From Hormiphora californensis (Eukaryota > Animalia > Ctenophora), in the NCBI GenBank assembly GCA_020137815.1, contig CM035359.1, positions 992,001 to 1,056,000 of the forward strand: a stretch of DNA of 64,000 bases. The letters are read 5' to 3'. Shown in pieces: positions 15,301-33,300 of the stretch; positions within the stretch are counted from its first letter, which is position 1; each line of letters opens with the position of its first letter. The translations under genes and the position numbers were made by a program. The notes under the pieces were generated by a model. It made no database searches, had not been told where the DNA came from, and saw only the letters and a program-made list of their open reading frames with translations.

Positions 15301-18300
15301 CAAAGCAAAGGAGTGAGTAGTGACAGTAGCCTAAATTTCGGGAGGCACGCGACTTAAATGTACGTGCATGATCTAAGCACTCCTACTAAAAGATACAACC
15401 CGCGTTTCAGATAGAACGGTGATAGTCGATGTGCTGAATGAGTCTTCTTTCTTTTCAACCTTTCCCGAACTCCACGATGCCCAGCAGTTGGTGGTCATCC
15501 TCACCTTTATACAGTACATTATTGAGCAGCCCCCGCCGACAGACAATGTCTACCATGCAGACGTTAGGTAGGAATCGGTCCCAAGATATAATCCACTGTT
15601 TTCGTGGTACAGTCTGATCCCGATTTACCAGGATGCTTGGGGGGAAAGGGTTTCGCCTGGTAAATCGGGGTGCCTGGTACAGTCGGACCCCGATTTACCG
15701 GGATCCTCGGGGGAAGCCATTTTGCCCGGTAAATCGGGGTGCCCGGTATATCGGGGTAGAGCATATTTGACGCATAAACCCTATCCATAAACCCTACTTT
15801 TGTCCAAAATTCTATACCAAGACACCTCTAACTGTATAGTATATATACTTATTGATGACAATATGATCATTGCTTCTGTCATTAGAAATAGAAAATTTAA
15901 AAATTCAAAAAAAATTGTAAACATTTTTTCTATGGTAAACCCTCCCGACCGAGTCCGAGTCGTGTTTCGAATCGGTGCATCTTATCTCATGTCCTGCCGC
16001 TAATTAGACGGTTCGAAACTAACCGATATGTGATACCATGCCGAATCTGTCACCCTAAGCGGGGTGAGGAAGCATCAAAATTTCAAAATTTACTTTTTCT
16101 CTGAAAATTTACGGGGAGCATCGATCAAAGCATTGACAATCATTCTGTAAAATTTTGCAAAAAAATTATGAAATTTTTCTAAGGTATACCAGCCACGTTC
16201 GAATCGTGTTTTGAATAGGTACATCTTATCACGTGTCCTGTCGCTAATTAGAAGGTTTGAAACGAACCGATACGTGATCCCCATTAGACCTAGCGAATTG
16301 AAAATGTGATTTTACCAACTGGCAAAACTTCGAAAATTTTCAAAAAAAATCAGGGGAAAGAAATCCTCCCGGTAAATCGGGGTTCCGGTAAATCGGGGCC
16401 CGGTAAATCGGGGTCCGACTGTATATCGGGGTCCGACTGTAAAAATAACAATATGTATTTCCCAGGTCGATTCTACGGGCACTTTTTATGCACAAAGTTC
16501 ACATTGATGCCTCATTCGCCCGATCTCGTATAAAGGTACCAAAACTCAATTTACTATTGTTCCTTTTTGTTCCTTTTTGTTCCTTTTTGTTCCTTCTAAC
16601 AGTACCTTCCAGTACCGCGATTGACTGACGTTTGTTCCACCCAACCTCCAAATACTAACAGTAAACTAAATTTGTGTATCTCAGTTAAATGCGGCTACAG
16701 TGATACATCTTTTACCCGAAGAAGATAGAGCGGAGTACGAGAAGAGTACTAGGAGAGACGAGGATGCCCCTCCGTATATTGTCAGGGTCAATAAGATCAA
16801 GGTAAAGCTTCCATATCAATTGCGAAAATGCATTCTGGAAAGTGTCTAAATCGCTTTCTAGGCATGGTTTTAGTCTAGTAGAGGTCACTTTCGCTCAAAA
16901 GTATGATTTTTACGTCAGATGTTTTATTTTGCAGGGTTGCACATGAAAATTACCCACTGTGTTCTGATGTGAAAGTATGGAAGGTTTCAAAAAATATTGT
17001 TCTTTGAAAACATTAACATTTAAACTCTGACAACACAAAAACTCTGTGCATAACAGGCCTGTGAGCATGATATCGTGCCGATACATTGAGTTTCGTGTGA
17101 CTGTTAATTTATGGGCTACCTCGTATATGGTCTGACTTTATAACATTTTCACCAGAATTGCCCGGACGATGTAGTGGCTGCCCAGGTATATACTGGTCTG
17201 ACTTTATAACATTTTCACCAGAATTGTCCGGACGATGTAGTGGCTGCCCTTCAAAGTCGTTTCCATTTCTACCACACCAAACCTGATATCACAACTGTCA
17301 ACAAAACACCAGGCTTTTACAAGGACCATGATTTTAAGGATCTACTCGTGTTTCCAAGCTCATTACGGGAGGAGGTAATATACACAAGTTGGGGGTAGTA
17401 TGACATAGGACCGTCGGGGTCATTTCGGAGGTCATACTTGGGGGAATACCCAATTTATTTTTACTAGATCACGGGAATAGTATCAAAAGGCAGTTGTGGT
17501 ATTTCAAGCCCCCCCCCCCCACCTATTCGTGATATTGTGAACGGTCCAAAAGAATTGCTTTAACTAAATTCTATGATCTTTCCAGCTGACAGGTCTACCT
17601 ATTGTGAAAGAGTGCTCCCTCGTATTGCAAGAGAAAATACTGTCCTACGTGGTGAACAGTCTTCTGGGTCTCATGATGAGGGGTTATGACATTGTACAGA
17701 CGCACGCCGGGTCAGGTACGTGACACACATTGTACAAACGCACGCCGGGTTAGGTACGTGACACACACATTGTGCAGAAGCACGCCGGGTTAGGTACGTG
17801 ACACACACATTGTGCAGAAGCACGCCGGGTTAGGTACGTGACACACATAAATAGCCCAGTTTAGAAACTATCATTATTTGTTATATGTAAACAATTCATT
17901 ACATTTGTTAGTTTTTGAGTTTTGTATTAGGCCTGAAGAGGCATCTCGCAAATAGCAGCACGACCTTCGTTGCAGTGTTGATGATGATATCTCCAGGTCC
18001 AGTCCCTGTTGAATCTGAAAAGAAAAGGTTTTTTTGATACAGTTTTTTTGAGTTTATGATTTATATACTTAGTAGTATCATATATCTGGCATAGGCACTG
18101 TGCTGGTAAGCCTAAAGATGATTTAATATATTATTATATAATTGATATAGATATTCCCATCGCAGCCAGAACATGCTTTATTTTGACGAGCTGTATAGTT
18201 TTAATTTTTACTGACCTGTGTGACTTCATACAGGGGTGATTATCACGATCAATAGGTTGATGGGTGATGGCCATCAGTTTCTTGGCGATGATCCTGGTGT

Positions 18301-30300: not shown

Positions 30301-33300
30301 AGATCAAGGTTTGACTGTATTTTTAGCGGATTTGTGGCGTCAGCTAAGTGTCAATTATTAGGACATACTTCAGTCACTGTCTAATTAGGCAGTTGAGAGC
30401 TGTCTATTCTGCACTACTCATTAAAACCCATGATCTGTCCTGTTCTTAGAAGCATCAAGCAGCTATTGCATTGTTTCCAACCGTTTGGCTTGGAACTACA
30501 GTCTACACAGTTCTGGTTCAGATCCTTGCTCGTTTTACCTCGCAAACAATAGAACTGCACTCTTATTGGTCCACTTTTAGGTTCAACTGAGTTTATTGGT
30601 CGTTAGGTTCTTGACACATGACTAAGCTGTCGCTGCTGAGCGATCATACTTTAGACCGAGGGATTTGGAAAAGAAGAGACTTCTCAATTTATCTAGATTT
30701 GTTTCAATTCTACAGTCTACCGCTAGATTTGTTACGTACAACTATTCTTCTGCTTGAACTTACTAAAACCAACGAGTTTCAATTCTACAGTCTACCGCTA
30801 GATTTGTTACGTACAACTATTCTTCTGCTTGAACTTACTAAAACCAACGAGTTTCAATTCTACAGTTTACCGCTAGACGTGCACCCAAGGCAAGCTACCA
30901 ACTATCAGCTTGGCCAATAACTTAATAAGAGTTACATGCCATTTTATATTAGCTCCATGATGTGTTATTTATCTGATAGAATTCTTCATTTTGTACTAAT
31001 CAACAGCGTAGGTTTAGAAACTCTGTTAAACTCTCATTATTTGTTAACATAAACAATTAATTACATTTGACTCATTGTTAGTTTTTTAGGCCTGAAGAGG
31101 CATTTCGCAAACAGCAGCACGACCTTCGTTGCAGTGTTGATGATGATATCTGTAAGTCCAGTCCTTGTTGAATCTGAAAAGAAAGTGTTGTCTTAGGAGA
31201 CCCTAGTTGTTTACCAATTACCAAATAATAGTTTGATGCTTAGACGACTTGAAGCCACTTCATAGCATGGCTGTAGTGGGCCAAAGTGATCTAAGGTGAA
31301 AGTAGGACGTGCTATAAGTGAGTAATTGCGCGTCACAATGCGTGTTAATCATTTCCTTTGTTTCATCAACGAAGTGTGAGATGAAAGATTTATGAAGGAG
31401 CATACTTGTTTGTTTGTTGTATCGCGGGACGTATACATATTTAACCCCCACCATTGCTGATTGCTAAACGGTAAACCCTGAATGATCTTTTTAGCACACG
31501 TGCTAAATTCTAAAAAGATCATCCGGGTGAATGCCTACAGCCTTCACCTGGGCAGAGAAAATTTTTTTAGTGACGTCACTAACAAAAAATGTTAGTGAAA
31601 ACACTAGCAAAATTTAGTGTCCGCCATTCCAGTACAGTACCTAATATTCCCATTTAATTTTCACTGACCTGTGTGACATCATGCAGGGGTGATTATCACG
31701 ATCAATAGGGTGCTCGGTGATTGCCTTTAGTTTCCTGGCGATGATCCTGGTGTCCTCTCCGGTAACAGTGTAAAACTGTTCAATACTATGAGAGTTACCC
31801 TGGTCAGCACAGAAAAATCCAGTCCAGTACCACTCGTTATGTCCCATAACAGCAGCCTCGACAAACATGTACTCCATACGATCGTTTGCAACCATAAGAT
31901 GGGCAGATTGGCCATTGCACCAATTCTCACAATCCCTAAAGTTACAATGACCATGACGCCTCCTATCGTAGTAGCAGGCGTTCCTGAACTTCTTCCAGCC
32001 TCCGGGGCATGAGGTTCGTCGGTTATTGATGCGATGATTGGGGCGGAAGTTTCCAACATGCCTTGCACGGCAATGTCCGGGAACGGGACGCACATAATAG
32101 CCGCCAACACCGCCACCGCCACCACCGCCAGCGCCAGCTGCTCCTGCCCTGTAGTCGGAACAGATAACAGTCTCAGAGGTTGTCTTGGAGGCAGCGTACG
32201 CCGCCCCAAACAATAAGAGAACTACCAATAGTTTCATCCTAAGATTTGGAGTTAAGGGTTAGTTTTGTTTGGTTTTGGTCAATGTATTAACAGAAAGTTA
32301 GTAAAACAACAATTTATCACAATATCTTCATAGTATTTACAAATGATTGTTTAATTGAGACTTGGGAAACTAGCTTATAGAGGAACTTCGCAAATGGTCC
32401 TGTGACCCTCGTGTCCGTGCTTGTGATGCCAGTTCAAGCTTCTGTCGTGACGGGGATGGAACAGCAGGCAAGGTCGGTTGTGGTTATCAATGGGATCAGT
32501 CCTAGCACTGAGTTTCTTCTGGATAACTCTCATATCCTCACCAGTGACAGTGTAGAATTCAGCTGGATTCCTGGATTCTCCTCCTTTGGGGAAGCACCAA
32601 ATTCCTAGCCAGTGCCAGGTGTGATGAATAGCTACCTGGTTAGATTCAACAAATCGGTGTTCAGCCTTGTCGTTGGGAACGTACAGATGACCGCCATGCA
32701 TGTTGCACAATGTCTCGGCCTTTCGGAAACTAATGTCGTTACCCCAATCCGTCAAATGCTTGTAGCACTTTCCGTTATATTTGTGGAATCCGTCTTTGCA
32801 GGTTCCGCCCATTGACCTGGCGGCACGGAATGTTGGTCTCCAGTTTGCCATGTCTCCGTGGCGTCCTCGGCAGTTTTGAGGTGCCATTCTCTGGTAATAG
32901 CCAGCGAAACCACCGCCGCCGCCTTTCCCGAAATCGGAGCAAATGATATTGCTACTGGCGGCGTGAGTAGCCGCAACGATTGCGGCTACAAGTGTTATCC
33001 AAAACATTTCCGCCTATAGAAGTTGGTTGTAAGCTTTAAATGGTACCTTGAACAACATTTTTATAATATGTAGATCACTTACGAATAGTTTAGCAAAAGT
33101 AAATTTAGCACTAATTATAGCTCTACTGTAGTCAGAGCCCGATTTACTGGGATACTTGGGGGGACTTTTTCGTCTGGTTAGTTGAGGTAAAGGTGAATCG
33201 AGGTTTGACTGTACTCTGTAGAGCAGTCGGATCCCTTTTTACCGGGCCCCGATTTACCGGAACGCCGATTTATTGGGAAGATAAACTTCCCCCGATATAT

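Follow-up and report, generated by a model that had tools for sequence, protein, structure and literature searches.

In nematodes, tunicates and chaetognaths, a common geometry is used to recognise operons resolved by a spliced leader: neighbouring genes receive the leader and are separated by a short gap. The spacing in Caenorhabditis elegans operons has a median of about 100 bp, cut-offs of <100 bp and 60 bp apply to Ciona and Oikopleura, respectively (PMC7986045), and in the chaetognath P. gotoi a gap of <250 bp plus the leader serves as the criterion (PMC12460157). The closest proven case is the RFC140-flp operon of the non-bilaterian Hydra, having a short T-rich intergenic region that ends in an AG acceptor (PMC3273482). 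Here, a locus of the ctenophore Hormiphora californensis is compared with these systems, located in a stretch of 64,000 nucleotides (nt) from assembly GCA_020137815.1 (contig CM035359.1, positions 992,001 to 1,056,000), hereafter the window, to which all coordinates refer. It holds three tandem units on the minus strand, each with a gene B followed by a gene A, and each B-A pair is probably a two-gene operon resolved by the spliced leader.

Regarding ctenophores, operons had not been reported according to the available portion of PMC7986045 (2021), and no report was found in the literature searched, that on the Mnemiopsis leader included; early leader and Pleurobrachia genome work, which lies outside it, may mention one. 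The word operon is absent from the available text of PMC8527503 (main text), PMC12221973, PMC11797021 and PMC11184263, and that of PMC10282587, PMC4824033, PMC5619915 and PMC13498776 has it only in other contexts. The B-A pair is a likely operon of a familiar type, although no earlier report was found for the phylum, and the surprise is limited, as the mechanism is known from several phyla. It is of interest as a candidate defined to the base, since the two leader junctions and the poly(A) site of the upstream gene are mapped.

Leader addition at the B and A genes and polyadenylation of B3

Assembled contigs of eight runs from six studies, out of 24 listed runs, were compared against units 1 and 3; these contigs are of RNA origin, since they contain spliced joints and the leader. 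One non-genomic leader is present at the B acceptor in seven of the eight runs (X1, X2, X4, X8, X10, X12 and X13; five studies) and at the A acceptor in five (X2, X4, X5, X10 and X12; five studies), both acceptors bearing it in X2, X4, X10 and X12, and where a run lacks it at a given acceptor the contig ends at or short of that acceptor. The longest leader piece (28 nt plus AG, in X5) agrees by eye with the final 30 nt of the published H. californensis leader at 30/30 positions (PMC8527503). Ahead of the six acceptors, the genomic DNA agrees with the leader at just 11-18 of 30 positions, so the leader is not templated there. Of the junctions predicted by the sequence-only reading, those of units 1 and 3, the two units compared, are found with the leader (19583 and 33013 for B, 18782 and 32238 for A), 18782 being represented by unit-3-type contigs.

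Most contigs are of the unit 3 type, with 0-1 mismatches in X5 (for A), X8 and X13; those of X12 differ by about 3%, and X1 contributes unit-1-type contigs, one of which (3 mismatches) bears the leader on B1. The A intron is spliced out in 4/4 runs compared with unit 3 and in 2/4 compared with unit 1, where the joint that skips 201 nt (X2, X4) again comes from unit-3-type contigs. A single 749-nt contig of X13 comprises the leader, the whole of B3 and a 20-nt poly(A) tail at 32313, with 1 mismatch, and there are only 3 A among the 20 genomic nt that follow, an argument against internal priming. Other B contigs end at 18862 (X1), 4-5 nt short of the poly(A) site as judged by their loose ends (X2 and X10) or earlier.

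The mature messages are single-gene, consisting of leader, B3 and poly(A) tail (X13) and of leader with spliced A3 (X5), and the B3 poly(A) site lies 74-77 nt before the A3 acceptor. Leader-bearing messages of one gene each, across such a short gap, give a layout that fits a leader-resolved operon. This had been proposed from the sequence alone; the leader at both acceptors and the upstream poly(A) site are now observed, and a single promoter with a dicistronic precursor would follow from the spacing. No contig bridging the B-A intercistronic region is among those listed in the eight runs, assembled contigs being apt to drop rare forms.

Cleavage and acceptor are 77 nt apart in each of the three units, with unit 1 cleavage placed by inference near 18860. 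A U/GU-rich tract follows immediately after the poly(A) site of unit 3, whose intercistronic region has the acceptor as its sole AG. In all three A genes, a branch-point-like ACTAA stands 25 nt ahead of the acceptor end, followed by CTTAG/G-ATG, and an AG is found 6 nt ahead of all three B ATGs; both features had been read correctly from the sequence, as had the AT-rich character of the spacer (GC of 25% in unit 1 and 29% in unit 3).

As judged by this spacing, one promoter upstream of B would give a single B-A precursor, and A would have no separate promoter. The leader would be joined at the B acceptor, the precursor cut and polyadenylated at the B 3' end, and a second leader joined at the A acceptor 74-77 nt further on, resulting in two leader-bearing messages. 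The U/GU-rich tract may couple the 3'-end formation of B to the trans-splicing of A.

Alternative readings of the B-A pair

Several observations weigh against the operon. The spacers of units 1 and 3 are identical at 128/137 positions (93%), which is the level of the four-fold silent sites between both units (67/73 in B and 82/86 in A, 92-95%), so the spacer shows no extra constraint and the triplication does not amount to three independent signs of selection. Spacer conservation, to which the sequence-only reading pointed, was rejected as proof of function. A GA microsatellite is the only sequence common to the upstream flanks of B3 and B2, hence a conserved promoter could not be placed. The leader at the A acceptor is seen on unit-3-type contigs, not separately for A1 and A2, and the B3 poly(A) site comes from one contig in one of the eight runs. 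The ATTAAA-like hexamers noticed earlier are present, but they lie 40-52 nt ahead of this site, beyond the usual hexamer-to-poly(A) distance of 10-30 nt. PMC10284499 yielded no ctenophore data on such signals. Moreover, the leader is found on at least 56% of the long reads of H. californensis (PMC8527503), so its presence on A alone does not mark an operon.

The last point also supports the view that A has its own promoter, placed in the 77-nt region, the B coding sequence or the B 3' untranslated region (3' UTR), with the leader taking the place of a short outron; A and B would then be tightly packed independent duplicates, or the pair a hybrid operon. Cryptomonads have leader splicing without operons (PMC5619915), A2 is intact although the B2 ahead of it is frameshifted, and the contigs are blind to the start of the A precursor because its original 5' end is lost to the leader. 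However, the ACTAA at -25 leaves about 50 nt for a start within the 77-nt region, where a core promoter would overlap the B poly(A) signals, and a comparable Hydra intergenic region is without promoter activity (PMC3273482). The 77-nt region also has no TATA-like match or CpG, a weak argument given that ctenophore promoter rules are unknown. A promoter of its own, the strongest competitor of the operon, is judged unlikely for A. One promoter could also feed an either/or processing, in which the precursor gives B, or gives A with B discarded as a long outron, that is, one transcription unit without one-to-one output. Every contig is consistent with it, and A2 behind a dead B2 needs no functional B message; nothing favours it, however, over ordinary resolution with both messages from one precursor (PMC7986045), and it seems very improbable.

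Cis-splicing had also been considered, in which an upstream genomic copy of the leader would provide a first exon common to A and B, these being alternative exons further downstream. The H. californensis genome has 718 leader copies and clusters that seemingly share a 5' exon, although the same source deems this sharing a likely mapping artefact of trans-splicing (PMC8527503). The 31 kb upstream of B3 contain no sequence that matches the 22-nt leader end with 3 mismatches or fewer. The sole copy in the window (7105-7063, minus strand; 43 of 44 published letters, none expected by chance) is located on the downstream (3') side of the B-A units and lacks a GT donor, so neither A nor B can receive it as a first exon by cis-splicing, and this explanation can hardly be credited. 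The copy itself stands about 46 nt ahead of an intronless open reading frame (7016-5997, minus strand, 339 aa, no Pfam match above the cut-off), which may be similar to ORF1 of long interspersed nuclear elements (LINE), and likely records a retroposed leader-spliced RNA. Lastly, a larger host gene may span the cluster.

Array history and encoded proteins

The units and gene models are based on self-comparison of the window and translation of open reading frames, which confirmed the three B-then-A pairs with stop-to-ATG spacers of 154, 154 and 137 bp in units 1, 2 and 3 (Table 1). In the self-comparison, unit 1 matches unit 2 at 94.6% identity (17865-19811 against 25385-27314) and unit 3 at 90.3% (18200-19602 against 31653-33032). 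Each A gene has one phase-2 intron and encodes 217-218 aa. The expectation of three intact B genes failed, since a 1-nt insertion near 26929 leaves B2 with a 75-aa product and a premature stop at 26852-26850; B2 is either a pseudogene or an assembly error, and the cluster holds three intact A and two intact B genes. The ratio of nonsynonymous to synonymous substitution rates is 0.37 between B1 and B3 and 0.47 between A1 and A3. Rfam gave no matches within the window and, by inspection, no minus-strand gene lies directly upstream of B3 (34400-41300).

Table 1. Coordinates of the B-A units and of other features of the window
Feature	Position	Strand	Details
B3 trans-splice acceptor AG	33014..33015	-	leader joined to 33013; loose end at 33015 in X8, X12, X13
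B3 coding sequence	32375..33007	-	intronless, 210 aa, C-type lectin-like domain (PF00059, E 1.6e-7); spanned by RNA contigs with 1 mismatch (X8, X13)
B3 3' UTR	32313..32374	-	up to poly(A) site; cleavage within 32316-32313, final As possibly templated
Unit 3 intercistronic region	32239..32312	-	74-77 nt; acceptor AG 32240-32239; leader loose end at 32240 in X5, X12
A3 exon 1	31669..32238	-	leader joined at 32238, ATG at 32237; X5 contig with leader and spliced intron, 1 mismatch
A3 intron	31174..31668	-	phase-2 GT-AG, 495 nt; joint skipping 495 in 4/4 runs compared with unit 3
A3 exon 2 through stop	31086..31173	-	protein 218 aa
B2 frameshifted copy	26441..27083	-	acceptor AG 27085-27084
Unit 2 spacer	26287..26440	-	154/154 identical with unit 1 spacer
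A2	25443..26286	-	exon 1 26286-25721, intron 25720-25531, exon 2 25530-25443; 217 aa
B1	18936..19583	-	acceptor AG 19585-19584, ATG 19577, coding sequence 19577-18936, 213 aa, intronless
Unit 1 spacer	18782..18935	-	B1 3' UTR and 77-nt intercistronic region; acceptor AG 18784-18783; X1 contig stopping at 18862 has 7 mismatches
A1	17927..18781	-	exon 1 18781-18216, intron 18215-18015, exon 2 18014-17927; 217 aa
LINE-type element	1099-4866	+	PHD-finger frame, then reverse-transcriptase frame
Minisatellite arrays	13363-14351, 41971-42638		long
Frame with ATG directly after AG acceptor	40454-41011	+	as in A; no Pfam match; possible further leader-spliced gene or internal exon
Scattered exons resembling a protein kinase gene	~49800-43147	-	Cys-Cys-Leu-Met C-terminus; ~10 kb upstream of B3; read from open reading frames
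Cys-rich frames	60147-61031		may be upstream exons of the 61310-63670 gene
Long exon	61310-63670	+	low-density lipoprotein receptor class A repeats and rhodopsin-family seven-transmembrane domain

The divergence of flanks and A intron described by the sequence-only reading holds for unit 3 against units 1 and 2, the introns of units 1 and 3 being alignable only at their ends. It does not hold elsewhere, as units 1 and 2 share the upstream flank (131/139) and the intron (181/188), and the downstream flank of unit 2 is of the unit 3 type (141/142 sites). Unit 2 sides with unit 1 at 84/101 informative sites from B through A exon 1 and with unit 3 at 26/31 from A exon 2 onward. By these sites, unit 2 is a chimera of units 1 and 3, and the crossover between both types of sequence would fall in A2 exon 2. 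Such a mosaic is as expected from unequal crossing-over in a two-unit array, by which two units may have become three, B2 breaking afterwards. Both spacer indels fall inside the B 3' UTR, a weak pattern with two events only. A dispersed family of repeats similar to miniature inverted-repeat transposable elements, with inverted copies, occurs at 15605-16424, 19809-20958, 23732-23923, 33224-33474, 47472-47653 and 56855-57026; one copy breaks the B1 upstream flank and another sits 210 nt upstream of B3.

A and B are paralogous (43-46% identical), a relation absent from the sequence-only reading. Its designation of both as lectins stands as to the C-type lectin-like domain, as PF00059 is above the cut-off in all three scanned proteins, but not as to the canonical sugar-binding motifs. 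The motif rule for calcium-dependent carbohydrate binding is EPN or QPD plus WND, and none of these motifs occurs in the five intact proteins, so classical calcium-dependent sugar binding is unlikely, and A and B are probably non-binders of sugar in this manner. For the structure model of B3 (pLDDT, the predicted local distance difference test, of 79.5), the fold matches are of the C-type lectin-like kind, with a sequence identity of about 18%; one comparison gives template modelling (TM) scores of 0.55 by query and 0.78 by target at 18% identity. The ESM Atlas yielded nothing beyond generic Lectin_C clusters. With signal peptides called by eye from hydrophobic N-termini, a Gly-rich N-terminal extension with two Cys and 14-18 His in each of the five intact proteins, A and B are predicted to be secreted, His-rich and C-type lectin-like; a function related to mucus, adhesion or defence can only be guessed at.

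Regarding their origin, A and B each have a relative in other data that resembles an orthologue (79-86%). In a tree of 21 rows, with A entered as exon 1 only, P0065 groups with A, and P0001 and P0055 group with B (support 100/99 and 100/100), so the A/B split is old, and the pair may have arisen by an old tandem duplication. Full-length relatives comprise marine sequences and one Pleurobrachia bachei model; this model and the leader copy at 7105-7063 point to a pleurobrachiid-like ctenophore as the source of the window. The contigs that encode B-like proteins (lengths 1408, 3561, 1658 and 1451) differ in length from the one with the A-like protein (1501). A metagenome scan yielded one locus from 71 candidates (L001, 1200 nt), having a relative at 42-48% and no partner gene in the 560 nt that follow it. 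P0003, P0059 and P0065 lose similarity or end exactly at the residue of the A intron, suggesting that this intron is old and was lost in B. Ctenophore lectin domains are mentioned in the available text of PMC6278862 and PMC11797021, but not this A/B pair.

It is tempting, though doubtful, to suppose that the operon was born when a promoter-less tandem copy was rescued by leader splicing, that it duplicates as a unit and that A and B are co-expressed as the two subunits of a single secreted complex rich in His. If so, many ctenophore clusters described as sharing a first exon, as well as same-strand nested genes, would also be operons. A complex prediction for B3 with A3 exon 1 (which omits the last 29 residues of A3), made without alignments, gave a score of 0.01 and a mark of 0.34, which speaks neither for nor against a complex. 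The stoichiometric A/B expression and the heteromeric secreted lectin suggested by the sequence-only reading are conjectural.

Comparison with known operons

Compared with known C-type lectin-like proteins, A and B share the fold and are without EPN, QPD and WND. As to gene arrangement, the B-A gap falls within the <100 bp and <250 bp cut-offs of Ciona and P. gotoi, and its 74-77 nt exceed the 60-bp cut-off of Oikopleura. In these three animals, as in H. californensis, upstream and downstream genes have a common leader end. However, Ciona operons mostly have no intercistronic region, unlike the B-A pair, and those of P. gotoi show an enrichment of metabolic genes with broad expression, whereas predicted secreted paralogues are found here. 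The operon, if true, would be made of paralogous secreted genes and not of housekeeping genes.

The SL2-type operons of C. elegans resemble the B-A pair in a spacing of about 100 nt and in the U-rich tract that follows the poly(A) site of the upstream gene (PMC7986045, PMC3273482). Their downstream genes receive a distinct leader, whereas A and B bear identical 3' ends of the leader (24-30 nt seen), which ruled out an operon of this type.

The RFC140-flp operon of Hydra is nearest, as its downstream message also receives a spliced leader. It was proven by a reporter, a promoter-less control and mutation of the acceptor, whereas the B-A pair is known from its sequence and RNA contigs. Moreover, the Hydra operon joins unrelated genes <417 nt apart, while A and B are paralogues, both leader-spliced, with 74-77 nt from poly(A) site to acceptor (PMC3273482). 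If the operon reading is true, the 77-nt element could serve in two-gene expression vectors, as in Hydra.

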